Counted from the stretch's first letter, positions 9,001 to 47,189 are shown. The stretch: DNA of 64,000 bases from Minisyncoccota bacterium (GCA_963668425.1 OY764332.1:41241-105240); one strand, 5' to 3'. Numbers and translations: made by a program. Notes: generated from the letters alone by a model not told the origin.

Positions 9001-9980
9001 CGAGCGCAGAGGTAGTATGTACCACCCTCTTCGTCAACAATTGGAGTAAGAAAATGAGGGGTAGGAACACGAAACTGATATATACTAATCCCCTCATCGC
9101 ACTCAGTAATCTCAGAAGGAGAATAGTGTATGGCATATGCAAACGCTGCCCCTGAAGAAGAGGCAGTGGGAGCTCTCATAAGAGGGATATTTCGTTGTAG
9201 CCGCTCTGCCGCATTGATATACCCATCAGCAGCGCTGTTAATAAGGGTGGGTTGGGTGGTAATAGAGAGTTTGGGGAGAAGAGAGAGTATCTGTACGGTA
9301 AACGTGGCAGTAGCACTATTCCCCGCTTTGTCAGAAGCAGATACTTTAACGGTTGTATTTCCGGGCTTGATCCCCTTCAAAAGAAGACCTCGAGGTGCGA
9401 TGGAGGCAGAGACAAGCGCAGGGTTTGCCGGCGCTGAAACAGTAAATTTTAACGAGTTACCCTCGGAAAAAGCATTTTTTATAGGGATAACGGAAGAAGC
9501 ATTAGCATGAACACTGTGACGCAAGTCACTCCACAGAAGATTTGGTGACAGGATGTCTCTCTTTATAGCATGCGGACGAGAGATGTATAGAGTTTCTGCC
9601 CCCTGTTTACGAAACCGAACACAGACAAAATACACACCGTCACCTTCAAGGCCTCTGAAAAGATTTATGGTAGTAGGCACAGAAGCACTATAGTTAGTGA
9701 GCGTGCTACAGTTGATAAACGTGGTACTAGGACTTGGAGATTTTTGTACAGCATATTCAACCGTCACTCCGTTGGTTGCGACAACCGGCGTAGAGAGTAA
9801 AATCTTATTTGACAAAATCTCTGACCGGTTGATATACCCATCTTCTGCGGGACCGGTAAGTTCTGCATGGGTAGTAACAACAATGCTTTCAGGAGATTGG
9901 GCAAAGGCAATAAGAGAGAAGCTGCCAAGAGCGCACAGTAACAATACAAAAAACAATGTAAATGTGTGTTTATACCCCAT
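1..9980 (-). CDS. Giant secreted repetitive surface/adhesin-like protein, partial (more than 3326 codons; the C-terminus lies beyond the window start). N-terminal signal peptide, then many Ig-like modules.
   Basis: Reverse-complement reading from an ATG at 9978-9980 opens with MGYKHTFTLFFVLLLCALGSFSLIAFAQSP. The first in-frame upstream stop is at 9999-10001. No stop was seen in this frame down to position 1. The recurring motif (A/T)xDGYI(N/S)xxE is followed by TCxxxxGTY...DG.YYxCV and DxAGN(S/T) about every 130-200 aa (for example near 9840, 9215, 8600, 3890, 2730, 1570 and 990). All plus-strand ORFs in the track over this span are low-complexity V/T/S/A-rich antisense translations. The ORF track appears to omit ORFs that lack a stop inside the window. 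Confidence 0.72.
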   Translation of the reverse strand, partial: MGYKHTFTLFFVLLLCALGSFSLIAFAQSPESIVVTTHAELTGPAEDGYINRSEILSNKILLSTPVVATNGVTVEYAVQKSPSPSTTFINCSTLTNYSASVPTTINLFRGLEGDGVYFVCVRFRKQGAETLYISRPHAIKRDILSPNLLWSDLRHSVHANASSVIPIKNAFSEGNSLKFTVSAPANPALVSASIAPRGLLLKGIKPGNTTVKVSASDKAGNSATATFTVQILSLLPKLSITTQPTLINSAADGYINAAERLQRNIPLMRAPTASSSGAAFAYAIHYSPSEITECDEGISIYQFRVPTPHFLTPIVDEEGGTYYLCARASQKGYAPAYSQPLKIILDSVHPQSVQKLLSRYSVEKGDTISFDISGEFNEPSTFKVVQLSGSARVTISLVGSQLTLAALPSSQLGTAVLEIAATDIAGNPGRSKRRISIFVTAPRVVIAEHPALTPVVADGYISTADVVADLPLLTSGKADTEGVTVRFRASSVNSRTDRNASCSFVRSSNHQYSTDIPTTTSITKNGLVALCIEFSKPGFVTWHAPRFFIMRDTTAPKKTARSSQVAMAKGGSFTLSPHKFFVKESTPSHFTLSSVEDSEIATVSLSDDGTTLSFAALKEGKTSVSIQAADVAGNTTTRQLSLVVSSEIVITKEPRLSGVASDGKITLAERFSEDPVINGIVVSLESTAFSYAMVLSTTPVTTCTASTGTYKETVPNAVSFVSDGIYYLCVKAANSPLSPVYSAPLRIAVSSDVLFKMPPRLLGVASDGFIKNSESDSGQAIIGGIATHVASPTITYAVIPSSTPPEECALSSGTYQHTPPSALSFSTDGTYSLCVQVFKGNFPPSFFGPLIMLRDTKSPTISDVSAPSATALSHDITAVFEDTTSGLSYYRVALIDASDRCDSTTERFDDKQDISSDTRAQFTTPAYMVYARNNKRVCYEVADNAGNISYTQSRIIPIRSSTLTAEVTLPDGEVFVNGEWTTAEHLTVLITDPVSPHALTIDLSRCDECRVVPSSREALGNGGFQFVLETGKSSSQRKEVLILTGNDIGNQPHFIFRFGADKSAPSNPAFPSIVGLNSGVSGTTLPATDAGEVMDVGSGVWSHNVYGFVADPGDCIATIDTASFLPLHSSIEGEGAWLTGSVTTEIPQVPDESQNGKYLCRVLQDRVGNIAVRVSDIPVAIDLSAPRLVVDPIPEHSKLLSSAQVDTGYAQLANFFEDTSPITYAVTLRSSDSSVRLDSAVQIHTITENSLLAIRFLSPISVIVDVRATDAFGRSTTSSFIFKATDMFSATGAEIPPSGDRIVLSFKEDIAPESAVSALLSSAFSLSVTAIDGEGESVSHIDPDGAITVDGSIISLPLRTYWTFGDTVTLTYTAPSSGTTLQNTSGARVGSFTILIEDVATPSSDTIAPEVRIYAESARRAGLQKEGVSTDHLFYSSVAGEIVKKIPVRAEQTFYVVVRDRVSGEVLVSGVDQVIAALIPEDDTCPSATALKDGTLTTGEIVLSSKYASLPTEAVVEITTDLSRHTFCILVEDGNDNTPTPPVLESAAIPFGTIDTTIPTLERATLAEDSSAITLTFSEPLTTTSPSVSAFSLNHTARALDGSAVSYLTSVAISGNTVTLPLSVHWGTRGALRLSYTPPSIAPLRDIAENEVIAFETAVTFPESFLDDEDTSAPSIIIYQENGKAEGLQTSGLKSDTFTAAYRAPANGSRTSGLYNNVFSDTIYVTSTDTFDGGTTIGTGVDRLLIDVVPTYTTCPATVSEFSDTTTSFEGIASVSRALTLSATPEHAVSLIGRTLCFFFADREGNTGIVEVYGRSSSLPLSSEASDRYISLEESRSSNTLLAAVKPFSPNTTVAYALKHSADPITSCETGFSTLFKAALPRITDLKQDGDYYLCVRGTRRLSGDVDAVEYLPPRRIRRDTVIPTIVPDATLSYAITTGTPVTLPLTDVFNDAVRYTVGTPSDERVISASISSLDMLHISGIDEGSATVEITGHDVAGNSVSEVVSVVVFASRIKFITKSVLTNDATDGYISAPESTKKSALITAPIVSPFFAKVQYALKTSTTAITTCDADFGTYTSTRPTVASLTSDGTYYICVMAATAGLTTQYSEPVTLVRDTTVPELLTSAKTSYTLTVTTPATISVDTLFAGATEYAVADPTDTNVVTASFTSPTLTITPIDSGTSSIVVTGRDSAGNSHDVTLTLEVSSLALTAKTAPTLLNDATDGFITLKESTETTALVSAPVTTPAAIAKYAVKHSSTAITTCDATFGTYSTTVPTAVDLSKDGDHYLCALSEKKGYITIYTTPLKVVRDTVAPSIVADTPLTYAHTIEDERTIDLSDIFTGAVTYSVGAPSDSSVISTSFSTPELTFNAVGKGESTIVISATDTAGNSTEATITVTVSLFTLTFTSQPTLANDAVDGYVNAQESSATTSLVATSANADVAFTYALKQSSSAIATCDADFGTYTSTRPTVASLTSDGTYYICIRAIKTKYAPLYSTPLKVTRDSIAPQSAIGAKTSYTLTVTTPATISVDTLFAGATEYAVADPTDTNVVTASFTSPTLTITPIDSGTSSIVVTGRDSAGNSHDVTLTLEVSSLALTAKTAPTLLNDATDGFITLKESTETTALVSAPVTTPAAIAKYAVKHSSTAITTCDATFGTYSTTVPTAVDLSKDGDHYLCALSEKKGYITIYTTPLKVVRDTVAPSIVADTPLTYAHTIEDERTIDLSDIFTGAVTYSVGAPSDSSVISTSFSTPELTFNAVGKGESTIVISATDTAGNSTEATITVTVSLFTLTFTSQPALANDAVDGYVNASELRKAAFALVAAAETTQDTTITYALHYHATDALSICDASSGTYASALPTTTALTKDGMYSLCARAEKERYDAHYSSPLVIVRDTVAPTIAQGAKLVHAVNTITPVTIDLSTIFSNDAVTYAAGTPSDTAILTTAFESPNLTLTGIGNTSGTSTITVTGFDQAGNSIRGIFTVNVTVSTITITTPVTLINDAEDGYINEDESTNTTALVSAAVTTPTTTTEYAVKHSTNTISACDASFATYSATAPTAASLAKDGDHYICVRSKKGTNLISYHTPLKVVRDTSDPSVSADAPSTLFVIAGRSETIATTSLFTDEAVHFSAESPTETEVATASLSLTTLIITGVAKGNTKIVVTGFDAAGNSTEITIALTVTDAVITVITPSKLINDAEDGWINTEEVKNSVAFVSAPVTFPATTATYAMKHSAGAISSCDASFATYSATAPTATSLTKDGDHYICVQVQTGGLPTVFSAPIKLTQDTIAPVVSDVPEDDGRNRVGLIRRRDIAKHFTGGTRFVTEFS
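1556..3778. repeat. Two tandem copies of a 1161-bp (387-codon) unit inside the giant gene. They are near-identical at the nucleotide level except for an ~75-bp divergent patch.
   Basis: ORF-track pairs 1637..1873 and 2798..3034, 2035..2235 and 3196..3396, and 1467..2054 and 2712..3215 have identical translations offset by exactly 1161 bp. Direct comparison shows 1556-2459 equals 2717-3620. The copies diverge at 2460-2533 versus 3621-3694, then match again at 2534-2614 versus 3695-3775. Confidence 0.9.
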
Positions 9981-10103
9981 ACAAAAGAAGGAACTATTTC
10001 AAGTGTAGCATGTACTGAAAGAGAGATTAAAAAAAACGGATGTGGAAAACTGCATATGTGCCATCTGACTCCCCTTCTTTTTTGTTAGGTTAGGGATTGG
10101 TGC

Positions 10104-15908: not shown

Positions 15909-16505
15909 CTACTGATTTTTGTGCACATCTTTCATCGCCATCATCCGTACCTTATCAATCCATTTTTGACGTATCTCATCTGATGACCCGCTGGTCGGAC
16001 CGAAACTGGTAACGGCAACTGGTTTCACGCCACAGGTGCGCAAAATTCCTTTTGATAGTTCATTTGTGTATGAGCCAATACTACACCAAAGCAAAAATGG
16101 ATGTGCTGAGCCGACGATATTGATAATCCGACCGCTCTTTCCTTTGAGCAGTGGCTTGAATGTGTTGTCTTCAAAGGAAAAAGCAAATTTCGGTAAAAAT
16201 GTCCGATCAAATAACCCTTTCATTTTTGCCGGCATAGTATTCCACCAGTTTGGATACACGAACACCAAATGATCTGCAAGACGAATTGCCTTTTGAAATT
16301 TAAGTAAATCTGGCTCTAACTCTTGAATTTCCTCATACCCCTTGTGTAGCACTGGGTCAAAATCCATCTCCTCAATGTTAAACCGCATTACTTTAGCACC
16401 TGCCTGCTCTGCTGCACTATGGTACGCATTGCTGCATGCGTATGAGAATGATGACGGCACTGGGTTTGCATTCAAAAGGAGAATTTTTTGTTTTTCCTCA
16501 TTCAT
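15909..16505 (-). CDS. Flavodoxin-fold NAD(P)H dehydrogenase (quinone)-like protein (Flavodoxin_2 / MdaB-KefF-like).
   Basis: KILLLNANPVPSSFSYACSNAYHSAAEQAG...HLVFVYPNWWNTMPAKMKGLFDRTF is typical of NAD(P)H:quinone oxidoreductase-like flavoproteins. Confidence 0.7.
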   Translation of the reverse strand: MNEEKQKILLLNANPVPSSFSYACSNAYHSAAEQAGAKVMRFNIEEMDFDPVLHKGYEEIQELEPDLLKFQKAIRLADHLVFVYPNWWNTMPAKMKGLFDRTFLPKFAFSFEDNTFKPLLKGKSGRIINIVGSAHPFLLWCSIGSYTNELSKGILRTCGVKPVAVTSFGPTSGSSDEIRQKWIDKVRMMAMKDVHKNQ

Positions 16506-17673: not shown

Positions 17674-19104
17674 TTACTTAGTGATGCCAACTCCTTTGAA
17701 GAGGATGCGGCGCGCGCGATCCGTCAGAGGAGGAATGAAGTTGTGGGAGAATTTTCCAAAAAACCCTTGTTGCACTATTGCTTTTTGGTTTGAAAATGCT
17801 CTAAATCCAACCTTCCCTCCTTTATACCGACCCATCCCGCTGTACCCTACACCACCAAATCCCATAGTGTGAGATCCTGCGTGTAGTAAAAAATCGTTTA
17901 CTGTTACCCCGCCGGAAGAAGTGCGTGCAATTACTGCATTAATGTGATCTGTGCTCTTTCCAAAAATGTACAGTGCGAGCGGTTTTTCACCTTGATTAAT
18001 GTGGTTAATTGCGTCCTCAACGCTCTGATATGGGATGATAGGTAATAGCGGACCAAAAACTTCTTCCTGACACACTTTTGTGCTTTGCGGTGGATCTATC
18101 ACCAATGTCGGAGGAATTTTTCTGGTTTTTGCATCTGGCAACGCCTCATCGCGTGGAACAACAGAGATAACCTTTGCATTAAGGGTCTTGAGTTCTTGCA
18201 GATAGCTCTGTATTCGATCATACGCTCCGTCGCCTACCAAAGTGGTATATTGAGGGTTTGTCTGCAATGATGGATATGACACTTCAATTGCATCCTTCAC
18301 CAGATCAACAAAATGTGTGAGGTGTGCTTCCGGCACAAGCACATAATCACCTCTGATGCATACCTGTCCTCCGTTTAGAAGCATTACCTTTGCTACTTTT
18401 TTTGCCAGAAGAGCAAGATCGGCATCAGGGAGTACCACCACTGGTGACTTACCTCCTAATTCAAGCAGTACTGGAGTGAGGTTTGAAGCCGCTGCTGCCA
18501 TGATGTGTTTCGCTACTTCTGAGCCGCCGGTAAAGACAAGTTTGTCCCATGCCAAGGTTGAAAAATGTTTTGCTGTTTCTATGTCACCTGTGCAGATTGC
18601 GATAACGTCTTCACTGAAATATTGTTTCGCTAGAGTGCTCATCAACGTGCCTGTCTTTGGCATTGATTCAGGAAATCGCAACACCGTTGTGTTACCTGCT
18701 GCAATCGCATCAATCGCAGGGTCAAATGCTAAGCTTATCGGCGCGTTAAAAGGGGCAAGTATCCCCACAACACCGAGTGGCTCATTTCTAATGTAGGATT
18801 TTTGTCCCAATAGTCCTAGCCAGCCATCTGATTGTCGCTCGTCAGGAAGCCATGCTTTGAGATGCTTTCGTACATGTCGTACGTGATCAAGCACTGGATA
18901 GATATCCCCTAAAAAAGCCATGTCGTAATCTCTGGTGCCAAAATCTTCTTGAAGCGCCTTTATGATGTCTTCATACTGATCACGTATACACTGATCAATT
19001 TGATTGAGTGTGTGCATTCGTTGAGCATAGGAACGTCCATGACACTCTTTGTATGTAACGCTTTGCAAAGCAAATACACGGTCAAGTTCTTTGATATGAT
19101 TCAT
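17674..19104 (-). CDS. Aldehyde dehydrogenase (NAD(P)+), ALDH class-3/coniferyl-aldehyde-dehydrogenase-like.
   Basis: LELGGKSPVVV (the ELGGKSP ALDH motif), a catalytic-Cys region GGQVCIRGDYVLV, and EEVFGPLLPI. Length is 476 aa. Confidence 0.85.
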   Translation of the reverse strand: MNHIKELDRVFALQSVTYKECHGRSYAQRMHTLNQIDQCIRDQYEDIIKALQEDFGTRDYDMAFLGDIYPVLDHVRHVRKHLKAWLPDERQSDGWLGLLGQKSYIRNEPLGVVGILAPFNAPISLAFDPAIDAIAAGNTTVLRFPESMPKTGTLMSTLAKQYFSEDVIAICTGDIETAKHFSTLAWDKLVFTGGSEVAKHIMAAAASNLTPVLLELGGKSPVVVLPDADLALLAKKVAKVMLLNGGQVCIRGDYVLVPEAHLTHFVDLVKDAIEVSYPSLQTNPQYTTLVGDGAYDRIQSYLQELKTLNAKVISVVPRDEALPDAKTRKIPPTLVIDPPQSTKVCQEEVFGPLLPIIPYQSVEDAINHINQGEKPLALYIFGKSTDHINAVIARTSSGGVTVNDFLLHAGSHTMGFGGVGYSGMGRYKGGKVGFRAFSNQKAIVQQGFFGKFSHNFIPPLTDRARRILFKGVGITK

Positions 19105-38638: not shown

Positions 38639-39538
38639 TTAGTATGCTTTCACACACGCCACAACTTCGCTATCAGGTCCTATGTTGTACGATGATCCTT
38701 GGACAAGAGGATTGACATCATACATGTTTAAATATTTTAATATCTTGATAAGATCAAAACTTTCAGTTTGTGAGTACACTGTACTTACGGAATTTATAAA
38801 AGATCCACTGTTTCTTTGTGGCAACATAAAATCCTCTGAGAGACAATTCTTTTCTAATATATTCTTATTAAAATACTCAACTGTCTTTTTATGTATATCA
38901 GTATATAACACCTCACCTTCACGCTGATCTCCATGCGCTAATTGATTTCTCATTTTCCAGGCCTTATCTTTGAGATCTTTTCCCAAAATTTCTTTAAGTA
39001 TCTCATCTTTATCTCCCTTACTCTTCGCCAGTGCTTCTAATGCAAAGAACATCAACGATAATTTTCCAATATAATTGTGTGTCATTGATGCATCTGCCCA
39101 ATATAAATAAAACTCCTCTGACACTCTCTGCTCACTCAATTCTTTCAATATAGGGAGAGTTGTGAGGTGGTTGAAGCTATTCCCAACGTTTCTATATAGC
39201 GCCCTCCAAAGAATTGCATGACCTGCTCCCTCTTTATAACAGACAGTTCCATACTGTTTTTCCACGGATGTTTGTGCTATGAATATTATTTTTGGCAACC
39301 ACTGATCCACCTCTTTAGAAAATTCCTTTAGTGCCATCTTGTGATTTTCTCCTTTAAATTCACCGAAAACTGCAATCCTATTTTTAGATATTGAGCAAAA
39401 GTTAAGATTGCCAATGGGCAATACGCTTTTAGGGTCAGGAGCATTTTTATAGCTTTGGTAATTTTCTCCACAGAAGTCAATCGAGCTCTGGTAACTTCGT
39501 GCAATACGATATGTATTCATATTTTTATACTGTACCAC
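38639..39538 (-). CDS. Hypothetical protein with a HEPN-like Rx4H motif (Abi-like candidate).
   Basis: ...KAWKMRNQLAHGDQREGE contains R-x4-H-G. The protein is predicted helical and lies in the defence islet next to the restriction-modification genes. Confidence 0.35.
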   Translation of the reverse strand: MVQYKNMNTYRIARSYQSSIDFCGENYQSYKNAPDPKSVLPIGNLNFCSISKNRIAVFGEFKGENHKMALKEFSKEVDQWLPKIIFIAQTSVEKQYGTVCYKEGAGHAILWRALYRNVGNSFNHLTTLPILKELSEQRVSEEFYLYWADASMTHNYIGKLSLMFFALEALAKSKGDKDEILKEILGKDLKDKAWKMRNQLAHGDQREGEVLYTDIHKKTVEYFNKNILEKNCLSEDFMLPQRNSGSFINSVSTVYSQTESFDLIKILKYLNMYDVNPLVQGSSYNIGPDSEVVACVKAY

Positions 39539-39588
39539 ACAGTACTCTATTTTTTATTTGCTAAAAGATAAATGAAGATGTTATTACA

Positions 39589-40014
39589 CTACTCCAAACG
39601 TTTTGAGTTTATTGACTTATGTAACTCTATGTACTCACTAACTGGACCAATTTTCATTTCCAAACCTTCTGTTCCTGCTGTACTTAGGTATATTCTGGCA
39701 ACGCCAAGCATTCTTTCTGCAACATTTTGTTTATAATAAACGTTTTTAATATCTGAATAATTCGTGTCAACAAAATCTCTTGATACAAAACTAAATAACC
39801 TACTCACTCTCTTGTTCGTTACTGCAAAATGAGTACATCGCACCTGTACTTCTATCACAATCACAATTATTAGCGGAATAATGATTGTCCAGCAGAGGAC
39901 TATTGCAATAAGATATCGCACCCAAAAAATCCTTCGTGGATGTTTGTATATTTTTTCAATTTTTTCACCGTCAACAAGATGTTTTTTAATACAATCTGGT
40001 ATATCTTTTTTCAT
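39589..40014 (-). CDS. Membrane protein with a bacterial PH domain (bPH_2 / YdbS-YdbT-like).
   Basis: EKIEKIYKHPRRIFWVRYLIAIVLCWTIIIPLIIVIVI is a TM hairpin, followed by ...THFAVTNKRV...IKNVYYKQNVAERMLGVARIY. This is the characteristic DUF304/bPH_2 layout. Confidence 0.6.
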   Translation of the reverse strand: MKKDIPDCIKKHLVDGEKIEKIYKHPRRIFWVRYLIAIVLCWTIIIPLIIVIVIEVQVRCTHFAVTNKRVSRLFSFVSRDFVDTNYSDIKNVYYKQNVAERMLGVARIYLSTAGTEGLEMKIGPVSEYIELHKSINSKRLE

Positions 40015-40117
40015 ACTGTACTACTATTGTACACATTAAATCTGAAGCTCTTCAGCACAATAAGTTTTACAGGTCTTTGCAAATAATATATAAGTAGGAG
40101 ATTGTACTACATATCAA

Positions 40118-40951
40118 CTACAGAATCACTTTTTGTTTTTCGTAGAGCATTGGGAGAGTATTTTGCCTCATGCGGAATTTGGTGCCGTGGTTGTGTCTGG
40201 TACGAGCATCAAAATCAATAAGTATCTTCCCCTCTTCCAGCGCTTTCAGAAATCCTGTGAAAGTGAATTTCTGCAACATCATAATTTTTGTATAATGGTA
40301 GTGTTCTTTGTTGCGTATCTTTTTTACTTCCGCCTGTACATAAAAAGTATTGAGCAGTTTTGTCCCAGCTGTATGCTCTAAGTCGTCAAACCCCCAATAC
40401 GGTTGCGGGTCAAACTCATCTAGTCCTGCGCGTTTTTTGACGGATGCAAGCCATTGTTTATGCCGAACGTCAACACTCCCAGCATCAAAAGAAACAGCTA
40501 CTTTCTGGTTTTTTCGATCAATCTTCACCATAAACCCACGATCGCTACGTGATTGACCATGTATGGTCACACGAAAACTCATCTCATTTTTTGGGTACCT
40601 TCCGCCGCTTTCCCTGTGTCTCCAGCCGTATAAGGGGAGGAGTACTTGTGGCACAAGTCGTAGTGCGCGAGGTGATGGTTCACAATGAAACAGTGTTGTA
40701 AGCGAGGAGGAATTGACACGTTGCGTCTTTAATTCCCACTCTGCAGCATTTGGTATAGGCAAATTATTCTCTTCAATGCCGAGCAAGTCCTCAAGCGTGT
40801 TGCCAACACCGCCATCGTTACCGTGCCGCGTGTTTGGTACCCACTCCATTTCTACAATCTTTTTTAACTTTTCTGTTAGCCCTCTTTTTGTATATATCTT
40901 TTGCTTTTTTACTCTCATACCTGAAGAAGGAGTTTTGGTTGAGATTGACAT
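40118..40951 (-). CDS. Putative type II restriction endonuclease, MutH/MvaI/BcnI-like PD-(D/E)xK fold.
   Basis: ...VGNTLEDLLGIEENNLPIPNAAEWELKTQR gives D...ExK, like the MutH DLGD...ELK catalytic segment. It overlaps the upstream methyltransferase by 37 bp on the same strand. Length is 277 aa. Confidence 0.45.
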   Translation of the reverse strand: MSISTKTPSSGMRVKKQKIYTKRGLTEKLKKIVEMEWVPNTRHGNDGGVGNTLEDLLGIEENNLPIPNAAEWELKTQRVNSSSLTTLFHCEPSPRALRLVPQVLLPLYGWRHRESGGRYPKNEMSFRVTIHGQSRSDRGFMVKIDRKNQKVAVSFDAGSVDVRHKQWLASVKKRAGLDEFDPQPYWGFDDLEHTAGTKLLNTFYVQAEVKKIRNKEHYHYTKIMMLQKFTFTGFLKALEEGKILIDFDARTRHNHGTKFRMRQNTLPMLYEKQKVIL

Positions 40952-41664
40952 TGTTTGATTCTTTGTTTTGCCATCTCACAGTATTCTGGGGAAATATCAA
41001 TGCCGATATAATCTCTTTGTAAATTTACTGCTGAAACTGCCACTGTACCTGAACCCATAAATGGATCTAAGACAACTTGTGCGCTGGTTGAGGATATAAT
41101 ACGTTCTATTAAGCCAGATGGAAACGCAGCTGGATGGCCATTCTTCATTTCTTGAGTAAACTCCCACACATCACCACATCCGTTTGCTTTTGGCAGTAAT
41201 TTGAACTCTGGCTTTGCGATGAGGTAGATTACTTCGTAGGTAGGTAAGAAGTATCCTGGATTAAAATTAAAACCGCCCTTTCTACGCCAGATAATGATTT
41301 GGCGAACTGGAAAACCTGCTACAATATCTTGCCGATCCTGTAGTAAACCGCCCTGCACACGCCACTTATGGTTATAGAAAATTGCACCATCTTCAGGAAT
41401 AAGCCGCATCATCTCAGCTAGGCAGTTTCGTTGCCACTGTACATATTTCTCATGAGGCATACAGTCATCGTAATGCGAGTAACCATTTTGTAGTTTGGCA
41501 TTTGCCCATTTACCACCATTACCATTTTTTAGACCGTTGCCAGTAGAGTTTTTGATGTTGTATGGTGGCGAAGTGACCACCAAATCAATCGATTCGCTTG
41601 GTATTTGTTTCATAGCATCCAACACATCACCGCAAATAATGGTATTTAAAAACTTCTTTTTCAT
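40915..41664 (-). CDS. Beta-class amino-DNA methyltransferase (N4-cytosine or N6-adenine; the SPPY motif favours N4C).
   Basis: Motif IV DLVVTSPPYN precedes motif I VLDPFMGSGTVAV (beta permutation). C-terminal ...DYIGIDISPEYCEMAKQRI. Length is 249 aa. Confidence 0.9.
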   Translation of the reverse strand: MKKKFLNTIICGDVLDAMKQIPSESIDLVVTSPPYNIKNSTGNGLKNGNGGKWANAKLQNGYSHYDDCMPHEKYVQWQRNCLAEMMRLIPEDGAIFYNHKWRVQGGLLQDRQDIVAGFPVRQIIIWRRKGGFNFNPGYFLPTYEVIYLIAKPEFKLLPKANGCGDVWEFTQEMKNGHPAAFPSGLIERIISSTSAQVVLDPFMGSGTVAVSAVNLQRDYIGIDISPEYCEMAKQRIKQCQSQPKLLLQV

Positions 41665-41856
41665 GTTAGTTTTGACTATCTCTTATGTATTTTAGTATAC
41701 CAGTATCACTGAAGCACTCTGTACTGCCGGCAGAATTTTAATATTTTTGGAGGAATACTTAATCAAAATTTACTTGGGCTAGGGATTGCCTATATTGTTG
41801 GAGCAAATAATGTGAGAAAACAACTGCTATGGAATATTACTTACTATGAGATTGTG

Positions 41857-41927
41857 TGCGGGTAGGGAGAATCGAACTCCCGTTTTGGCCTTGGGAAGGC
41901 CACGTCATACCACTAAACCATACCCGC
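41857..41927 (-). tRNA. tRNA-Gly (anticodon CCC), CCA not encoded.
   Basis: Reverse complement GCGGGTA-TG-GTTT-AGTGGTA-TGAC-G-TGGCC-TTCCCAA-GGCCA-AAAC-GGGAG-TTCGATT-CTCCC-TACCCGC-A. Confidence 0.8.
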
Positions 41928-42024: not shown

Positions 42025-42909
42025 TTATTCTGTAGTGGTGAGCAGGTGCTGCTTGAAAAAGTCAGAGCAGGCAGTGCCACTGTTGCAGATGAGCAGGTAC
42101 TCAAGATTGTTATCCTGCAATAGCTTTGGAGTGGATTGTGGTGGTGTCGCGCAGGCGATAGTTGCAAAAACATCGGCTGCCAGTGCAGTTTCTGCAATGA
42201 TGTGAGCGGATATCTCACTGGTGTGTTCAGCAATGATGTGATGGTGTGCTGTGTCGGATTTGCGCCAACGGCGTTTATGTGTGCTTGAGCCGGCGAACCC
42301 CTGGTTTGTAAGAGGCACTTTTGCAATGCTGTTTTTTTGTTTAGTCGGATGTTCAATGAAAACGTCAATAGGAGAGTTATCAGGAAGTGTGGTTGCATAT
42401 ATATCACCACCACCGTTTACTAGGAAGTGTTTGATTCTAAGGTCTGTCTGTAGCATATTGGCTACCTCATCAATAAGCCACCCTTTTCCAAAACCGCCAA
42501 GGTCAACAGATCCCCGATGTAGTGTGATTTGTTTTTTATCTATTATGAGATCAATGTCTGGATTTGCAGGTGCTGTGCTGTCATTTGAGCGTACTGTTTG
42601 TGATGCCCCATACCCACGAGCAACTTGTGTGTGGGCAGATAGGAAATTGAACATGCCTTTTGTGTCTTTGTAGAGTTTTTTCCCGAATTGCAACAGAGCG
42701 ATAAGTTCGTCAGTAGGATTTTCAAGAATGCCTGTTCTGTTGAGTTTCCCTATAAAGGAAGTATTTAAAAAGCGTGAGTATTGCTTCTCAAAAACAGTAA
42801 GGCGTTTTGTGATGCAGTCAGTAACTTCCTTTTCTCTTTCCTCTGGTGCATCAAATAGGTCAAACCACCACAGTGTTCCTAGTGCCGCGATTTCTTTAAT
42901 TCGTATCAT
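42025..42909 (-). CDS. apbE: FAD:protein FMN transferase (ApbE family).
   Basis: SVDLGGFGKGWLIDEVA matches the ApbE DLGG(I/F)xKGxxxD signature. Length is 294 aa. It is the last gene of a three-gene minus-strand operon; the upstream gene ends 1 bp inside it. Confidence 0.75.
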   Translation of the reverse strand: MIRIKEIAALGTLWWFDLFDAPEEREKEVTDCITKRLTVFEKQYSRFLNTSFIGKLNRTGILENPTDELIALLQFGKKLYKDTKGMFNFLSAHTQVARGYGASQTVRSNDSTAPANPDIDLIIDKKQITLHRGSVDLGGFGKGWLIDEVANMLQTDLRIKHFLVNGGGDIYATTLPDNSPIDVFIEHPTKQKNSIAKVPLTNQGFAGSSTHKRRWRKSDTAHHHIIAEHTSEISAHIIAETALAADVFATIACATPPQSTPKLLQDNNLEYLLICNSGTACSDFFKQHLLTTTE

Positions 42910-43424
42910 TATAGAGATGCGTCTGATGCAATATCTGCTAATGCTTCATTAAAGGCAACAGTGGTCAGTGATGCGCCACCGACCCGTGCTAGGTCAAGAT
43001 CGTCTATCTCTACACCAAGTACCAGTTGCTCATATGCCCCATCAAACCCTGTGTGGCTAGGTGTTTTTGCCTCCGCGTCATCGTAGAGCACATCTGCTGC
43101 GGTGATGACATCGTTATTGATAGTCAATGTAACAGAGATATTGTGCTGTACACGTTTTGGTGTGAAATATGCTGCGTCTGCGGTGTATGTGCCGTTGTTA
43201 TAGGTGTTTTTTTCTGCGGAGATGGTGTCTGCTTCCCTGTCGGACGTGGTTGTGTATTCTACCGGCGGATCTAGGGGCTGATCTATGGGCGATTGCTTGT
43301 TTGGAAATACAAAAAATAGGAGGCCGGCAGCTGCGCCAATGATAACGATGATAATGAGTGCGATGGGCATATGCGATATATGACTGTGTGATGTAGTATA
43401 CCACGGAAAAGTTGTTGCAGTCAT
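42909..43424 (-). CDS. Extracytoplasmic FMN-binding-domain protein (NqrC/RnfG-like FMN_bind), a candidate ApbE flavinylation substrate.
   Basis: N-terminal TM/signal MPIALIIIVIIGAAAGLLFFVF. C-terminal ...AYEQLVLGVEIDDLDLARVGGASLTTVAFNEALADI carries a [ST]GA[ST]-like flavinylation-type motif (GGAS). Confidence 0.6.
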   Translation of the reverse strand: MTATTFPWYTTSHSHISHMPIALIIIVIIGAAAGLLFFVFPNKQSPIDQPLDPPVEYTTTSDREADTISAEKNTYNNGTYTADAAYFTPKRVQHNISVTLTINNDVITAADVLYDDAEAKTPSHTGFDGAYEQLVLGVEIDDLDLARVGGASLTTVAFNEALADIASDASL

Positions 43425-44938
43425 GCCAGTCCCGGGAAAAAGTCACGTATGATGTTTTCTTTTGACACCTTACTATTTTTGAGCAGCAGTGAATATGCAC
43501 GCACCATTTCGGACGGCCCTGAAAGATACCATACTCGCTCTTGATAGTCGGGGGTATGCTCTTTAATACTGCCTTCCGTGAGAAATCCATGCATGTACCC
43601 GCTTCTCTTCTCTTCTGCTAACACATGCACTACCTTGCACCATCCAGCATCAGCAAGTGAGGTGAAGATCTCTCGGTATGCGATGTCCTCGTAGGTGTTG
43701 TTACAGTAGAACAAAACGATATCTCGTGGAATATTCTGTTGCTTGATATGACTGAAATGACTCAGAAATGGAGTAATGCCGATGCCGCCTGCGACAAACG
43801 CAAGCTTTGCCTTGGTATCTTTTGGTAAAAGAAAATCACCGGCACGTTGACTGCCAATGATGTGATCTCCTGGTTTTAGTTTTTGCAGTGCTTGCTTGTA
43901 TGTGCTTCCTTTTTCAGAAAACCGTACCGCCATGCGCAGAGTACTTTCATGTGGTGCGGAGGCAATAGTAAAGTAACGTCTGATACCACGGCTATCTGGC
44001 TTTTTATGAGGTAGTGTCCATTCAAGATACTGTCCGGCATGAAACTGCATATCAGCCGGTTTTCTAAAAATAAATTCTTTTGTGTTTTTAGTAATTTCTT
44101 TTACTTTGATGAGCGCTGGGTGTATTTTTTGGCGTAGAGAAAATGGATAGAAGGCGAGGTTGCCGATAATTAGTGCGAGTTCTGGAGACATTGCTATATA
44201 CGGTGCAAAAAAAGTGGCGCTGGATAATCCGCCGACCAGTGCACCATACCACCGTTGCAATTTCTTGGTTGGCGGGGTGGTAAATGGCTCGGTCAGCATA
44301 AAAAATGCAAGGAACAATATTGGCCATGAGGTAAAGAAGGTTGGTATAGCAGAGAACGTGTTAGTACCAAGTCGCCATGCTTCAAATATATATACAACAA
44401 ATGCAGTGCCCACACACCAGCACACGAGGTTCCACCGTCGTATCTTCATTACCACAAGAGACCCTGCTGCCAGCAGTGGTACAAATAGCCATGGAGTCCC
44501 TATCCACCATGTCGCCTCAACAATTCCAGGTGCACTCAGTGCAAGCGCGCCAAATGCTGCAGGGTTAAAAATGTGCTGCTTTTTCCATGCAAAGAGAAAT
44601 TTTGAACCGATCGCAATGAAGGTAACAGCACTGATGACCCATTGTCCAGACAGTGTGGGTGCAGGGACAAAAAGGAAAAAGATAATCAGTGCTGTTATTA
44701 TTGCCGAGCCATGATTTGCGGATACACGCCATAGCCGAGCAAGTGCTACATTACTTATCATAGCAACACCAAGCGCAGTAGCAAGTGAAGCTGTCTGATC
44801 AATGAAACTGTACGGCACTTTCCCTATCACTCCAAACACTAAACTTGTTGCGACTAAAAAATACAGCGCGAGTGTAACTGTGCGGTACATACCTACCCCG
44901 TCTAACCGCTTTCGTATGGTGTGTGCAATAGCAATCAT
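43421..44938 (-). CDS. Membrane oxidoreductase: N-terminal polytopic NQR2/RnfD-like domain fused to a C-terminal FNR-like FAD/NAD(P)H-binding domain.
   Basis: Eight or more TM helices carrying KKQHIFNPAAFGAL (RnfD/NqrB-like FNPA segment). The C-terminal part has RRYFTIASAP (RxYS FAD-binding motif) and KLAFVAGGIGITPF (NAD(P)H-binding GGxGxxP). It overlaps the FMN-binding gene by 4 bp. Confidence 0.65.
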   Translation of the reverse strand: MIAIAHTIRKRLDGVGMYRTVTLALYFLVATSLVFGVIGKVPYSFIDQTASLATALGVAMISNVALARLWRVSANHGSAIITALIIFFLFVPAPTLSGQWVISAVTFIAIGSKFLFAWKKQHIFNPAAFGALALSAPGIVEATWWIGTPWLFVPLLAAGSLVVMKIRRWNLVCWCVGTAFVVYIFEAWRLGTNTFSAIPTFFTSWPILFLAFFMLTEPFTTPPTKKLQRWYGALVGGLSSATFFAPYIAMSPELALIIGNLAFYPFSLRQKIHPALIKVKEITKNTKEFIFRKPADMQFHAGQYLEWTLPHKKPDSRGIRRYFTIASAPHESTLRMAVRFSEKGSTYKQALQKLKPGDHIIGSQRAGDFLLPKDTKAKLAFVAGGIGITPFLSHFSHIKQQNIPRDIVLFYCNNTYEDIAYREIFTSLADAGWCKVVHVLAEEKRSGYMHGFLTEGSIKEHTPDYQERVWYLSGPSEMVRAYSLLLKNSKVSKENIIRDFFPGLA

Positions 44939-45241: not shown

Positions 45242-45315
45242 GCTGGCGTAGCTCAGTTGGTTAGAGCGTAGGACTCATAAACCTAAGGTCGGTGGTTCAA
45301 ATCCACCCGTCAGCA
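45242..45315 (+). tRNA. tRNA with CAT anticodon (elongator Met or lysidine-Ile; not initiator, since the 1-72 pair is G-C), CCA not encoded.
   Basis: GCTGGCG-TA-GCTC-AGTTGGTTA-GAGC-G-TAGGA-CTCATAA-ACCTA-AGGTC-GGTGG-TTCAAAT-CCACC-CGTCAGC-A. Confidence 0.8.
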
Positions 45316-45353
45316 CTACAGTGTTGTATGGAGCAGGAAGTATTTTTTTCTTG

Positions 45354-47189
45354 TTAACCATCAAGATAGTCAATGTCTCTCTGGAATATTCTTGCGTTGG
45401 ATGCAACTGCGTTGCAGTAGTTTAATGCGTGCTGTTTGTATCTTCCCAGTCGCCACCCTGGTCCGGCATAGTAGCTTGCCGCTGCATTACATTCATCCTT
45501 TGTGGCGCCAAGTTTTTGTAGATATGTCGCGGAAGCAAAAAAGGCATCTCGTGGATTCCATGGGTTGGATGGTCGGTGATTAGCTGCTTTTGCTCGTATG
45601 ATATCTTTATCCGCCCTATACTGCCATGGTCCAGAGTAAAAATGTAGTTGATTAATGGCATTTCTTGTTGAGTTGCCGACTATGCCGGTGCCACGAGTGT
45701 ACCCGTACGGATGTAAAATCCTGCTTGCGTATTTCTCTTGAAATCTACTTACCGCTGCTGCTGTTTTACTGGCGTAGCGACTACTCTCATTTCCAGGACT
45801 ACCCTCTCCGCTTGTCGCGATGGTGAATCCGTTTTGATTTAAAAACTGCTGCAATCGCTTTACATCTGCACCAGTGCTTCCCACCTGCAATGTGCGTGTT
45901 GTTTGTATAAGTTTTCTTCCGGGTGCGCTTGTGCCGGTTTTTGTGTTTATCAACCCCCCAAACTGAACCCATGTTGACGGTATAAACTGTGCCGGACCCA
46001 TTGCACCACCCCAACCAAACCCTGGATTTGCGGATACTTTTAGCTCGTTTGGATTGTTGAATCCAAGCAACTTTGCGATATACGGAAAAATCGGCGCATC
46101 CCGAGTCGGGTGCATGTCAGTTATGTAGTTTCCGGTTCCAACATTCTTCCCAAGGTCGGACTCATTTTTAATCAAGCCGAGCAAAAAGGCAGGTCGCACG
46201 CCGGTTGCTCGTTGCGCCTCTTGGGCATACTGCACCGCCTGACCAAATGAAATATCACCGCTTCCGCGCAATTCAAATAAGCGATTTTGTATTTCTGCAA
46301 CCCTGCTTTCATATCCACTTAATTTTTCCACTGTTTGTTTTTCTTGGGTCACTTGCAAATCAAGCAAACGCTCTTTTTCTTTTCTTTGATATTGCACTTG
46401 ACTTACCGTTGCCTGTTGCTGTTGTCGTGCTGATCCGCGCTGATCTTTTCTTTGCTGCAGGTCATCAATATTTGCTGCGAAACGCTTTTGTAATACCTCC
46501 ACTTTTTGTATAGAATCTTCCATTGTCTCCCGCAATGATTGATATTCATTAATACGGTTAAAGAATGAAGAAAGGGTTGCGTTTGAGAACAGAAACCTGG
46601 CAAACCCTTGTTGCTCTGATTCGTTGATGCGCTGCAGCAATGTACGCAAAAATTGCTGATTTTCAGAAAGCTGTTGAGCAAGGTTTTCAATTGTGCTCTC
46701 TTTAGTATTAATCTCTTCCCCTAATGCTTCGATGGCTGTATCAATTTGGCGAATGCGAACTAATCCTCTGTTAATCTCGTTGTTTATTAATAAAATATCA
46801 GATTCGGTACCCTTCCGCGCATTCGCTTGCTCTTGCAATATCTTTTCATTTTTTTCAATTTGTGCCTGACACTCCGCAAGCGCTTTCTCCAGCGCCTTCC
46901 GACTAGTATCAAGATTGGTAAAGCATTCTTCCGCAGATGTTGTGAGCGGATGCTGTACTACCAATGTTACCAAGCAAAGCAAAAAAACACTGCAAAGAGT
47001 GCCTGCTCTTATAGAAATGCTTTCTCTATTCCTCTGTGGAGGTATCTTCTTTGTCGCCGTCTTCGGTGGCTTCTTCCTCCTTCTTACCGCCTTTTCCGGT
47101 AACTTCAATTTTTGATAGGTAATCTTCATCGGTTTCTGTTCCTTGTTCTTCCTCTTGAGATTCTTCCATAATGGACACGATAATCTCAT
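45354..47189 (-). CDS. Secreted lytic murein transglycosylase (MltB/SLT_2-like) with an N-terminal coiled-coil and a PG_binding_1 domain. The true start is probably downstream of the annotated ATG.
   Basis: Catalytic region LIKNESDLG...GAMGPAQFIPSTW. Peptidoglycan-binding repeat TLQVGSTGADVKRLQQFLNQNGF. A ~250-aa coiled-coil precedes these. The first 55 codons overlap rplY (47026-47189), and the only in-frame ATG (47129) is also inside rplY. The start is unresolved. Confidence 0.7.
   Translation of the reverse strand: MRLSCPLWKNLKRKNKEQKPMKITYQKLKLPEKAVRRRKKPPKTATKKIPPQRNRESISIRAGTLCSVFLLCLVTLVVQHPLTTSAEECFTNLDTSRKALEKALAECQAQIEKNEKILQEQANARKGTESDILLINNEINRGLVRIRQIDTAIEALGEEINTKESTIENLAQQLSENQQFLRTLLQRINESEQQGFARFLFSNATLSSFFNRINEYQSLRETMEDSIQKVEVLQKRFAANIDDLQQRKDQRGSARQQQQATVSQVQYQRKEKERLLDLQVTQEKQTVEKLSGYESRVAEIQNRLFELRGSGDISFGQAVQYAQEAQRATGVRPAFLLGLIKNESDLGKNVGTGNYITDMHPTRDAPIFPYIAKLLGFNNPNELKVSANPGFGWGGAMGPAQFIPSTWVQFGGLINTKTGTSAPGRKLIQTTRTLQVGSTGADVKRLQQFLNQNGFTIATSGEGSPGNESSRYASKTAAAVSRFQEKYASRILHPYGYTRGTGIVGNSTRNAINQLHFYSGPWQYRADKDIIRAKAANHRPSNPWNPRDAFFASATYLQKLGATKDECNAAASYYAGPGWRLGRYKQHALNYCNAVASNARIFQRDIDYLDG

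Follow-up and report, generated by a model that had tools for sequence, protein, structure and literature searches.

A CPR operon encoding a probable Nqr/Rnf-like flavinylation system, with a divergent FMN_bind subunit and an ApbE without an export signal

The operon described here comes from a candidate-phyla-radiation (CPR) bacterium and lies in a window of 64 kb, the whole stretch of DNA that was analysed. It consists of three co-directional minus-strand genes, which we call A, B and C, between two tRNA genes (Table 1). A sequence-only reading had proposed a three-gene operon on this strand, and we recovered the same ORFs to the exact nucleotide. It had also read overlaps of 1 bp between B and C and of 4 bp between A and B. 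The first is there (TAATG), but the second is present only with the longest ORF of B. Met19 of that ORF is the start in all 22 B homologues in our alignment, and the public gene call (P0291) is the 153-aa form; B therefore most likely starts at 43370. This start would leave a 50-nt gap after A, and the 4-bp overlap probably arises only from taking the longest ORF. Apart from the tRNAs, the flanking features are a lytic transglycosylase, L25 and an R-M system. A promoter scan of the operon gave the count expected from shuffled sequence, and the terminator count was not clearly above expectation. No rRNA turned up in an Rfam scan of the window, and the first 10 kb, which are poor in ORFs, are not explained by rRNA or other non-coding DNA, as a giant minus-strand ORF lies there.

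Table 1. Features of the operon and its boundaries (positions counted from the first letter of the window)
Feature	Position	Strand	Remarks
tRNA-Met	45242..45316	+	upstream boundary of operon
ORF A	43421..44938	-	505 aa
Membrane domain of A, aa 1-270	44129..44938	-	~10 transmembrane segments; helices from structure model
FNPA, aa 124-127 of A	44558..44569	-	common to RnfD/NqrB
Short outer loop of A, aa 136-148	44495..44533	-	invariant W144-W145; K/R-poor
FNR-like domain of A, aa 271-505	43424..44128	-	FAD-binding beta-barrel and NAD(P)H-binding fold
RYFT (RxYS-type), aa 321-324 of A	43967..43978	-	FAD-binding beta-barrel
GGIGITP, aa 384-390 of A	43769..43789	-	NAD(P)H-binding fold
ORF B, longest form	42909..43424	-	171 aa
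Gene B, most likely form	42909..43370	-	153 aa
Membrane anchor of B	43302..43367	-	'MP', then directly ~21 hydrophobic residues; helix 21-35 in model
RVGGASLTT, aa 147-155 of 171-aa ORF	42960..42986	-	predicted flavinylation motif
Ser152 of B (Ser134 in 153-aa form), codon	42969..42971	-	predicted FMN attachment site
Gene C, ApbE	42025..42909	-	294 aa
DLGGFGKGW, aa 136-144 of C	42478..42504	-	invariant in orthologues
tRNA-Gly	41856..41927	-	downstream boundary of operon

Protein A joins a membrane domain to a reductase domain in a single polypeptide. In a Pfam search, the same protein matched NQR2_RnfD_RnfE (PF03116; 34.7 bits, cut-off 27.7), FAD_binding_6 (28.8 bits) and NAD_binding_1 (PF00175; 56.3 bits, cut-off 22), all above the curated cut-offs. 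Fold comparison confirmed the RnfD/NqrB fold, and hhalign matched the membrane domain to E. coli RsxD with a probability of 95.4% (E = 1.9e-8). The RnfD-like::FNR fusion suspected earlier is thus borne out, and the motifs on which the suspicion was based are all seen in the sequence: FNPA, RYFT and GGIGITP in A, GGAS (within RVGGASLTT) in B, and DLGGFGKGW in C. The FNPA of A aligns with the FNPA of RsxD and of A. vinelandii RnfD, and N125 is invariant. The N terminus and the end of the membrane domain are both on the cytoplasmic side. The number of K+R per loop alternates strictly (1.8/0.06/0.8/0.06/1.7/0.14/3.0/0/1.9/0.4/2.7), a positive-inside pattern that puts the FNR domain in the cytoplasm.

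In RnfD and NqrB, a loop of ~80 residues bears the flavinylated Thr. The short outer loop of A (Table 1) takes its place. The RsxD insertion with GIDGISQATPLD, the loop of GISQATPLD, has no counterpart in A in the alignment; that position is variable among 35 homologues. Judging from these alignments, the covalent-FMN loop is deleted in A. We considered T143 (EAT) as a flavinylation site but rejected it, as this residue, unlike the invariant W144 and W145, is not conserved. Flavinylation of the RnfD-like domain, which the sequence-only reading had implied, can therefore be dropped: the Thr loop is absent, and the residue found there is not conserved.

Protein B starts with a membrane anchor, continues with a Pro/Thr/Glu-rich linker of low complexity and ends in a divergent FMN_bind domain resembling those of NqrC and RnfG. 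It had been taken for an exported FMN_bind protein, to be verified with Pfam. That search came out negative: B has no match in Pfam or NCBIfam, and FMN_bind (PF04205, gathering score 22 bits) gives none even at E ≤ 10. Weak PF04205 matches appear in 5 of 23 close homologues (best E, 0.0043), and one distant family member reaches exactly 22.0 bits. Profiles made from the close homologues or from 45 members found no FMN_bind chain among PDB sequences; the matches that they did return (a Kelch-like designed repeat protein, an enterotoxin-like protein and 4les) are not meaningful. When the B profile was aligned to the single E. coli RsxG sequence with hhalign, only the motif aligned, and the result was not significant (E = 0.37). 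Fold comparison and profile-profile comparison, however, both identify B as an FMN_bind protein. It has the FMN_bind fold, with the candidate Ser at the N terminus of the C-terminal helix; in the structure model this last helix (152-169) begins at Ser152. Sister lineages have a canonical Pfam FMN_bind protein (37.3 bits) at the position of B.

The predicted flavinylation motif is strongly conserved: RVGGASLTT is invariant in 23 of 23 B homologues, and VGGAS is found in 129 family members. The Ser of GGAS aligns with FTGAT of RsxG and VSGAT of canonical FMN_bind proteins, in which Thr is flavinylated. Two positions of the family motif, [AS]-R-V-G-G-A-S, do not agree with the canonical D-x-x-[ST]-G-A-[ST]. 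B itself reads A-R-V-G-G-A-S, so that the G-A-S core is kept while the Asp and the first Ser/Thr are replaced. According to a review, an Asp-to-Ala change in the ApbE recognition motif has minor effects only (PMC12052999).

Gene C encodes ApbE, as had been read from its DLGGFGKGW. The match to Pfam ApbE (PF02424) is full-length, with aa 11-272 of the protein covering profile positions 2-265 of 266 at 117.9 bits (cut-off 25.6). The protein has no signal peptide, lipobox or membrane segment. It begins MIRIKEIAALGTLWW, aligned to profile position 2, and this N terminus is conserved and unextended in orthologues, with five residues or fewer before the domain in 49 of 61 CPR orthologues. Extracytosolic ApbEs typically carry an N-terminal lipoprotein or secretion signal, and the lack of one here is difficult to square with a target outside the cytoplasm. 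Some ApbEs do act in the cytoplasm on targets there, an example being that of Klebsiella fumarate reductase (PMC12052999).

Which way B faces thus has to be weighed against the location of its enzyme. In an inward-facing arrangement, the B domain would be cytoplasmic, held by an N-out/C-in anchor, and would be flavinylated there by the signal-less ApbE. It would then shuttle electrons between the FNR domain and the cytoplasmic face of the RnfD-like domain, or simply be a membrane-tethered cytoplasmic flavoprotein. The N terminus of C and the Klebsiella precedent point this way. So does the anchor of B, which lacks the positive N-flank found in RnfG/NqrC: there is no K/R before the helix in 155 of 164 family members and a mean of 0.77 K/R just after it. 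However, the flank after the helix is net acidic (2.8 D/E), and it leads into the low-complexity Pro/Thr/Glu-rich linker. Relatives or positional equivalents of B carry classical signal anchors with K/R or signal-like N termini (P0254, P0284, P0241, P0250 and P0154; MKK... in A7). The FMN site of RnfD/NqrB falls on the outer face of A, and the published AlphaFold-multimer model places the NqrC/RnfG-like subunit at the outer site (PMC10979944). We consider an inward-facing B improbable. That its FMN_bind domain lies outside the membrane is something we infer from relatives only; the earlier claim of export is favoured by those relatives but does not pass cleanly, given an ApbE without an export signal.

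There may be a way to have both a cytoplasmic enzyme and an external domain. The CPR ApbE of this module would act in the cytoplasm, and B would either receive its FMN inside, before Sec/YidC export of the unfolded domain, or be a flavinylated subunit that faces inward; the B family would, in addition, be a large un-annotated clade of GGAS FMN_bind proteins overlooked by HMM surveys. We put this combined proposal forward tentatively, as somewhat unlikely. If true, flavinylation before export would add an undescribed route for ApbE substrates and save a minimal cell from having to export FAD. Either version would break with the paradigm of 'extracytosolic flavinylation' in CPR.

The module is widespread: it occurs in at least 578 species genomes, and the 80 best matches are apparently all CPR. 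The three genes lie side by side in 61 of 84 related loci; their order takes at least four forms and the flanks are unrelated, so their association is not due to chance. The B family comprises 2837 clusters at 50% identity and includes proteins with three and seven domains. Published surveys under-count the family because this FMN_bind partner escapes Pfam. Neighbours in 80-plus related loci, clustered by BLAST, included no conserved acceptor or partner gene beside the module.

A and B might also be what is left, or one part, of a true Rnf or Na+-NQR, an ion-pumping ferredoxin/NADH oxidoreductase with its other subunits encoded elsewhere. The membrane domain of A and B are homologous to RnfD/NqrB and RnfG/NqrC, and source annotations name A 'RnfABCDGE type electron transport complex subunit D'. 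However, a Pfam scan of the 43 larger ORFs of the window (the three operon genes and 40 others, including every ORF of at least 150 aa between 10.2 and 55.9 kb, antisense overlaps excepted) found no RnfA/E, B or C and no NqrA/D/E. No Rnf/Nqr subunit adjoins the module in three relatives with Pfam-annotated neighbours. The recurring neighbour clusters of the 80-plus related loci, which were made by BLAST only, the largest being named from Pfam-annotated relatives or by reading sequences, contain nothing Rnf/Nqr-like. Moreover, in A the RnfD-like domain runs straight on into the NADH-oxidising module and the covalent-FMN loop is deleted, and the three genes travel together through different genomic neighbourhoods. 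We reject a true Rnf/Nqr complex because no further subunits are present among these ORFs and neighbours, and we give a remnant of one very little credence.

In our judgement the operon probably encodes the 'Nqr/Rnf-like' flavinylation system of the literature: a membrane electron conduit of two subunits and the enzyme that matures it. ApbE would move FMN from FAD onto Ser152 of B. NAD(P)H would reduce the FAD of A, and electrons would then cross the membrane via a presumed non-covalent flavin site or sites in the RnfD-like domain, along the NqrB route (outer FMN to inner riboflavin) run in reverse. The covalent FMN of B, docked on the outside of A close to the invariant Trp-Trp loop, would receive them, and from B they would exit to an external acceptor, e.g., O2, Fe(III), free flavins or a compound derived from a host. 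For a CPR cell lacking a respiratory chain, the benefit could be the re-oxidation of NAD(P)H or the reduction of an external substrate, such as iron to be taken up. The sequence-only reading, a minimal NAD(P)H-to-outside flavin conduit and a stripped-down relative of Nqr/Rnf, remains the best one, and the same proposal has been made for the family (PMC8238504, PMC10979944). The literature on the Nqr/Rnf-like family holds no experimental evidence for flavinylation, electron flow or its direction.

The same hardware could also do another job. It could be a surface NAD(P)H oxidase or a ferric/flavin reductase, in O2 scavenging or iron assimilation, or it could take in electrons from outside in a reverse flow. 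A VIT1 iron transporter is present in 6 of 127 published clusters (PMC8238504), and the base-excision genes UDG and Fpg adjoin the module in 17-20 of ~80 related loci. The present operon, however, holds neither an iron transporter nor an oxidative-stress gene, and the linkage to UDG and Fpg may be no more than synteny within a lineage. Judging from the midpoint potentials of flavins and NAD, electrons flowing back to NAD(P)+ would have to go uphill without an energy input. We regard another job of this kind as possible, with the odds against it.

CPR bacteria (Patescibacteria) are thought to lack respiratory chains. A conserved, self-contained NAD(P)H-driven conduit through the membrane may thus belong to the few membrane redox devices that they have, and it could account for the way in which they get rid of reducing equivalents, reduce iron or interact with hosts. 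Small size (two structural genes plus ApbE) and the lack of haem and Fe-S make the module an attractive minimal model, both for electron transfer across membranes by flavins alone and for the workings of NqrB/RnfD. The module is real, but it is not a new kind of machine: the idea was proposed in 2021 and 2024. What we add is a well-documented CPR example, the loop deletion in A, evidence that the family is under-counted in published surveys, and the problem of the signal-less ApbE.

The fusion in A had been presented as having no characterised example. It is not new, because the systems of Méheust et al. 2021 (eLife 10:e66878, PMC8238504; 127 clusters) and Huang et al. 2024 (bioRxiv 2024.03.13.584918 / PMC11334425; PMC10979944; AlphaFold-multimer model) are defined by exactly PF03116 plus PF00175 in an ApbE cluster. 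It was thus described and defined in 2021 and modelled in 2024, but experimentally it is still uncharacterised. The operational definition of NQR/RNF-like is PF03116 and PF00175 in one protein inside an ApbE cluster, with the fusion gene within five genes of ApbE or of a flavinylation target (PMC8238504). Here, A has PF03116 as its N-domain and PF00175 as its C-domain, and ApbE lies two genes downstream. The 2024 description fits as well: the second subunit, B, is homologous to NqrC/RnfG, and the NqrB/RnfD Thr is not conserved. Both have two structural subunits only, and for both it is proposed that electrons pass one way, from NAD(P)H outwards. Such systems have been reported mainly from Actinobacteria and CPR. 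The present one differs in its FMN_bind subunit, which is too divergent for PF04205, has GGAS rather than [ST]GA[ST] and is anchored by 'MP' plus a helix, and in its ApbE without a signal peptide. To enter the 2021 pipeline, a cluster needed a target gene that Pfam recognises and that bears a signal peptide or lipidation site (PMC8238504); a cluster like this one would probably fail that filter, since its ApbE has no signal peptide and B is not recognised by Pfam. The family found here, with its 578 or more species genomes, is far larger than the 127 published clusters.

More distant systems share parts of the design. Rnf (RnfD and RnfG) and Na+-NQR (NqrB, NqrC and NqrF) depend on ApbE, as this module does, and B has the FMN_bind fold of RnfG/NqrC. 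Unlike them, the module has no RnfA/E, B or C, no NqrA/D/E and no Fe-S modules; its NADH module is fused to the RnfD-like domain, its covalent-FMN loop is deleted, and its electron path is expected to be linear rather than semicircular. In Listeria-type EET (Ndh2, EetA/B, DmkA/B, FmnB and PplA), the last protein-bound carrier of NADH-derived electrons is an extracytoplasmic FMN_bind protein that is tethered to the membrane and flavinylated by a member of the ApbE family; we predict both features here. Listeria, however, relies on a type II NADH dehydrogenase and a pool of the quinone DMK, whereas here one RnfD-like::FNR polypeptide replaces both. FmnB is a lipoprotein, in contrast to the ApbE of this operon, which has no export signal, and PplA has two canonical FMN_bind domains. 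The NOX/ferric-reductase (FRD) and MsrQ-like/PepSY-like flavinylation systems also have a fused PF00175, but they carry b-type haems in a six-helix ferric-reductase domain. The membrane domain of A is instead RnfD/NqrB-like and presumably flavin-based, with no homology to that of NOX.

Three tightly linked minus-strand ORFs, which a sequence-only reading had called an ApbE-dependent flavinylation and electron-transfer module, were recovered at the same coordinates in the ORF listing, bounded by two tRNA genes (table). We refer to them as A (an RnfD-like membrane domain fused to an FNR domain), B (an FMN_bind-type protein) and C (ApbE). As to the overlaps reported between them, the single base common to the B stop and the C start (TAATG) stands, but A and B overlap by 4 bp only if the longest ORF of B is taken. 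Since 22 of 22 database homologues start with the Met found here at residue 19, and the public gene call for B's exact sequence (P0291) is the 153-aa form, B most likely begins at 43370, 50 nt past the A stop. In a promoter and terminator scan of the operon, promoter-like sites equaled the shuffled expectation and terminator-like sites were not clearly above it.

Features of the operon and of the window around it
Feature	Position	Strand	Remark
A	43421..44938	-	505 aa
B	42909..43424	-	171 aa as longest ORF
C	42025..42909	-	294 aa
tRNA-Met	45242..45316	+	bounds operon
tRNA-Gly	41856..41927	-	bounds operon
RYFT	A residues 321-324		FNR motif
GGIGITP	A residues 384-390		FNR motif
SGPxxM	A residues 473-478		FNR motif
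Stop-free frame	3..9998	-	3332 codons, open past window start
Flavin reductase	15909..16505	-	Flavodoxin_2/FMN_red type, NAD(P)H-dependent
Aldehyde dehydrogenase	17674..19104	-	NAD(P)H-linked
Low-GC block	38639..41664		GC 0.36 vs about 0.44; includes 299-aa protein of no assigned family and bPH_2 protein
MvaI/BcnI restriction endonuclease	40118..40951		in low-GC block
N4/N6 DNA methylase	40915..41664		in low-GC block, overlaps endonuclease gene
Lytic transglycosylase	45354..47189	-	SLT_2/PG_binding_1; longest ORF
L25 gene	47026..47694	-	

The proposed domain fusion in A holds. A Pfam search gave NQR2_RnfD_RnfE (34.7 bits against a curated cut-off of 27.7), FAD_binding_6 (28.8 bits) and NAD_binding_1 (56.3 bits), all above their cut-offs, and the FNR motifs are present, with several of their residues invariant among homologues. 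Against PDB sequences, the RnfD relationship looked weak: phmmer matched A to no PDB chain, and a profile of its membrane domain reached only E = 0.25 with Azotobacter vinelandii RnfD. By other methods of sequence comparison it is firm; hhalign aligned a 21-sequence profile of the membrane domain with Escherichia coli RsxD at a probability of 95.4% (E = 1.9e-8, 190 columns). This alignment leaves an ~80-residue segment of RsxD, between FNPA and the following helix, unmatched in A. The segment contains the flavinylated Thr, GIDGISQATPLD; in its place A has a loop of 13 residues whose two adjacent Trp (W144, W145) are invariant. The preceding Thr (EATWW) is not conserved among homologues. The K+R content per loop in 35 homologues was, in order, 1.8, 0.06, 0.8, 0.06, 1.7, 0.14, 3.0, 0, 1.9, 0.4, and 2.7. 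This strictly alternating, positive-inside pattern puts the Trp-Trp loop outside and the N terminus, the FNR domain, and the loop LTEPFTxPPTKK inside.

At thresholds as loose as E ≤ 1, neither Pfam nor NCBIfam matched B, so the HMM search suggested for it could not have confirmed the FMN_bind assignment. Only 5 of 23 close homologues gave a weak FMN_bind match in Pfam (best E = 0.0043), and B-family profiles found no FMN_bind chain among PDB sequences. The assignment itself was confirmed by lines other than the HMM libraries: the position of the motif, positional equivalents, and profile-profile comparison. RVGGASLTT is invariant, with Ser152 (numbered from the 171-aa ORF) at the N terminus of the last helix. 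In a sister group of loci from the candidate phyla radiation (CPR; Patescibacteria), the gene at the position of B encodes a canonical FMN_bind protein (37.3 bits in Pfam) with the motif VD-x-[VI]-[ST]-G-A-[ST]. When a 45-member B profile was compared with an alignment of these proteins, hhalign returned a probability of 96.6% (E = 6.9e-10, 96 columns) and paired GGAS with SGAT. GGAS pairs in the same register with FTGAT of RsxG, a comparison not significant alone. The canonical ApbE target motif is D-x-x-[S/T]-G-A-[S/T] (PMC12052999); that of B differs from it at the Asp and the first Ser/Thr.

C is an ApbE, as read: it matches the Pfam profile over positions 2-265 of 266 (117.9 bits), and DLGGFGKGW and further residues are invariant in orthologues. 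The window gene encodes no signal peptide, lipobox, or membrane segment. Its ORF cannot be lengthened, and the domain's first strand stands at the very start of the protein. Of 61 full-length CPR orthologues, each adjoining an A homologue, 49 have at most 5 residues ahead of the domain even when their ORFs are extended as far as possible, and the sister-group ApbE (249 aa) likewise opens directly with it. This absence of an export signal does not fit the model, in which the predicted target domain is expected to be extracytoplasmic. Conceivably, B faces inward, with its FMN_bind domain in the cytoplasm next to a C that lacks an export signal. Three observations argue for an outside domain instead: the flavin site lies on the outer face of A, judging from loop position and K+R pattern; canonical FMN_bind proteins at B's position in sister lineages carry "MKK + hydrophobic" anchors; and a minority of B-family members have K/R-containing or lipoprotein-like N termini. 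B itself starts with "MP" directly followed by the helix, and 155 of 164 members have no K/R ahead of it, so orientation cannot be read from charge. Alternatively, an outward-facing B could conceivably be flavinylated before membrane insertion. Both scenarios are conceivable because some ApbEs act in the cytoplasm on targets located there, and a motif of seven residues is all that ApbE requires (PMC12052999).

The operon is real and well conserved, and the sequence-only reading was right in essentials. A has thousands of homologues; among the best 120 (49-100% identity), nearly all have PF00175, most also have PF03116, and all named ones are from Patescibacteria. With one genome per GTDB species, the membrane-domain profile confirmed at least 578 A loci. 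By their titles, nearly all of the best 80 records fall in CPR lineages (Kaiserbacteria, Paceibacteria, Nomura-, Adler-, Yanofsky-, Uhr-, and Doudnabacteria, and Levyibacteriota). The rest, a dozen-odd third-party MAGs, bear generic titles ("uncultured Gammaproteobacteria," "Anaerolinea sp.," "bacterium") that are probably imprecise. A, B, and C were all found in 61 of 84 related loci, as a rule no more than about 1 kb apart, in at least four orders (A-B-C; divergent C-B/A; B-C-A; A-C with B convergent). The flanking genes differ between loci. We clustered neighbors by BLAST (loci L004 and L007-L085) and named the largest clusters from the Pfam annotation of L004 or by reading sequences; no recurring candidate for an acceptor gene emerged among them. 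The commonest were UDG-like (20 loci), Fpg-like (17), V/A-type ATPase (14), and a His-/Cys-rich membrane protein without a Pfam match (10; HVHSD...HxHDG...HRH...CPERG...CGLTCE); examples are L071:7950-8618, L022:7795-8658, and L022:6528-7121. Their linkage may be functional or plain synteny.

An exhaustive profile search put the B family at 2837 cluster representatives at E ≤ 1e-3 and 1963 at E ≤ 1e-10. Ten members were scanned with Pfam: one scored exactly the 22.0 bits of the FMN_bind gathering threshold, one fell just short of it at 18.7 bits, and eight, the multidomain proteins among them, had no FMN_bind match. P0143 (440 aa) carries three tandem copies of the GGAS-type domain with linkers, and P0154 (1005 aa) carries seven, with Pro/Thr-rich linkers and a signal-like N terminus; lacking a Pfam match, both would be overlooked as "multi-flavinylated proteins." Two B paralogues (~145-157 and ~192-245 aa) lie side by side next to the A homologue in L015, L021, L022, L025, L026, and L031. 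In the sister loci (L055, L061-L065, L067, L068, and L075), the B-type protein and 290-aa ApbE are replaced, upstream of the A homologue, by a canonical Pfam FMN_bind protein that has a signal anchor of the MKK type and by a short ApbE of ~250 aa.

The 43 larger ORFs of the window scanned with Pfam, the three operon genes among them, are mostly housekeeping genes and restriction-modification systems and included no further Rnf/Nqr subunit. In this otherwise housekeeping stretch, the flavin reductase (a flavoenzyme) and the aldehyde dehydrogenase are two further NAD(P)H-linked redox enzymes, 25 kb off the operon. Because the syntenic relative L001 lacks it, the low-GC block just beyond tRNA-Gly looks like an inserted restriction-modification island. 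The longest transglycosylase ORF shares 164 nt with the L25 gene, against 35 nt in L001, so its true start is probably further downstream. The long stop-free frame had only weak Ig-like matches (Glucodextran_B, Big_13, and HYR in Pfam) and is probably a giant surface protein. Such proteins are common in CPR genomes.

We propose that C would attach FMN to Ser152 of B. NAD(P)H would reduce FAD in the FNR domain of A, and electrons would cross by way of noncovalent flavin site(s) in its RnfD-like domain, reversing the NqrB path. The FMN of B would then dock at the outer Trp-Trp face of A and pass electrons to an acceptor. The mechanistic reading of the sequence-only note, a minimal conduit from NAD(P)H to an extracytoplasmic flavin, is the published one (PMC8238504, PMC10979944).

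The operon belongs to the system that Méheust et al. 2021 named "NQR/RNF-like" and recognized by fused PF03116 and PF00175 domains within a flavinylation gene cluster (PMC8238504). The fusion is thus not undescribed: it is the defining feature of a system published in 2021 and modeled in 2024. We found no experimental study of the family in the literature. CPR were "strikingly underrepresented" in the 2021 survey (PMC8238504), which required a signal peptide or lipidation site and a Pfam-recognized target gene; the window cluster would probably fail on both counts, which suggests a reason for that scarcity. The kind is already described, and nothing here is categorically new; our analysis adds a clean CPR example, a large Pfam-invisible FMN_bind clade, and the localization problem of a signal-less ApbE. 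Huang et al. 2024 modeled the Ktedonobacter complex with AlphaFold-multimer and reported only two subunits, an NqrB/RnfD flavinylation site that is not conserved, and an NqrC/RnfG-like subunit whose covalent FMN extends to the flavin site of its RnfD-like partner (PMC10979944). Our independent results agree with the published account on domain content, fold, deleted loop, and FMN_bind partner.
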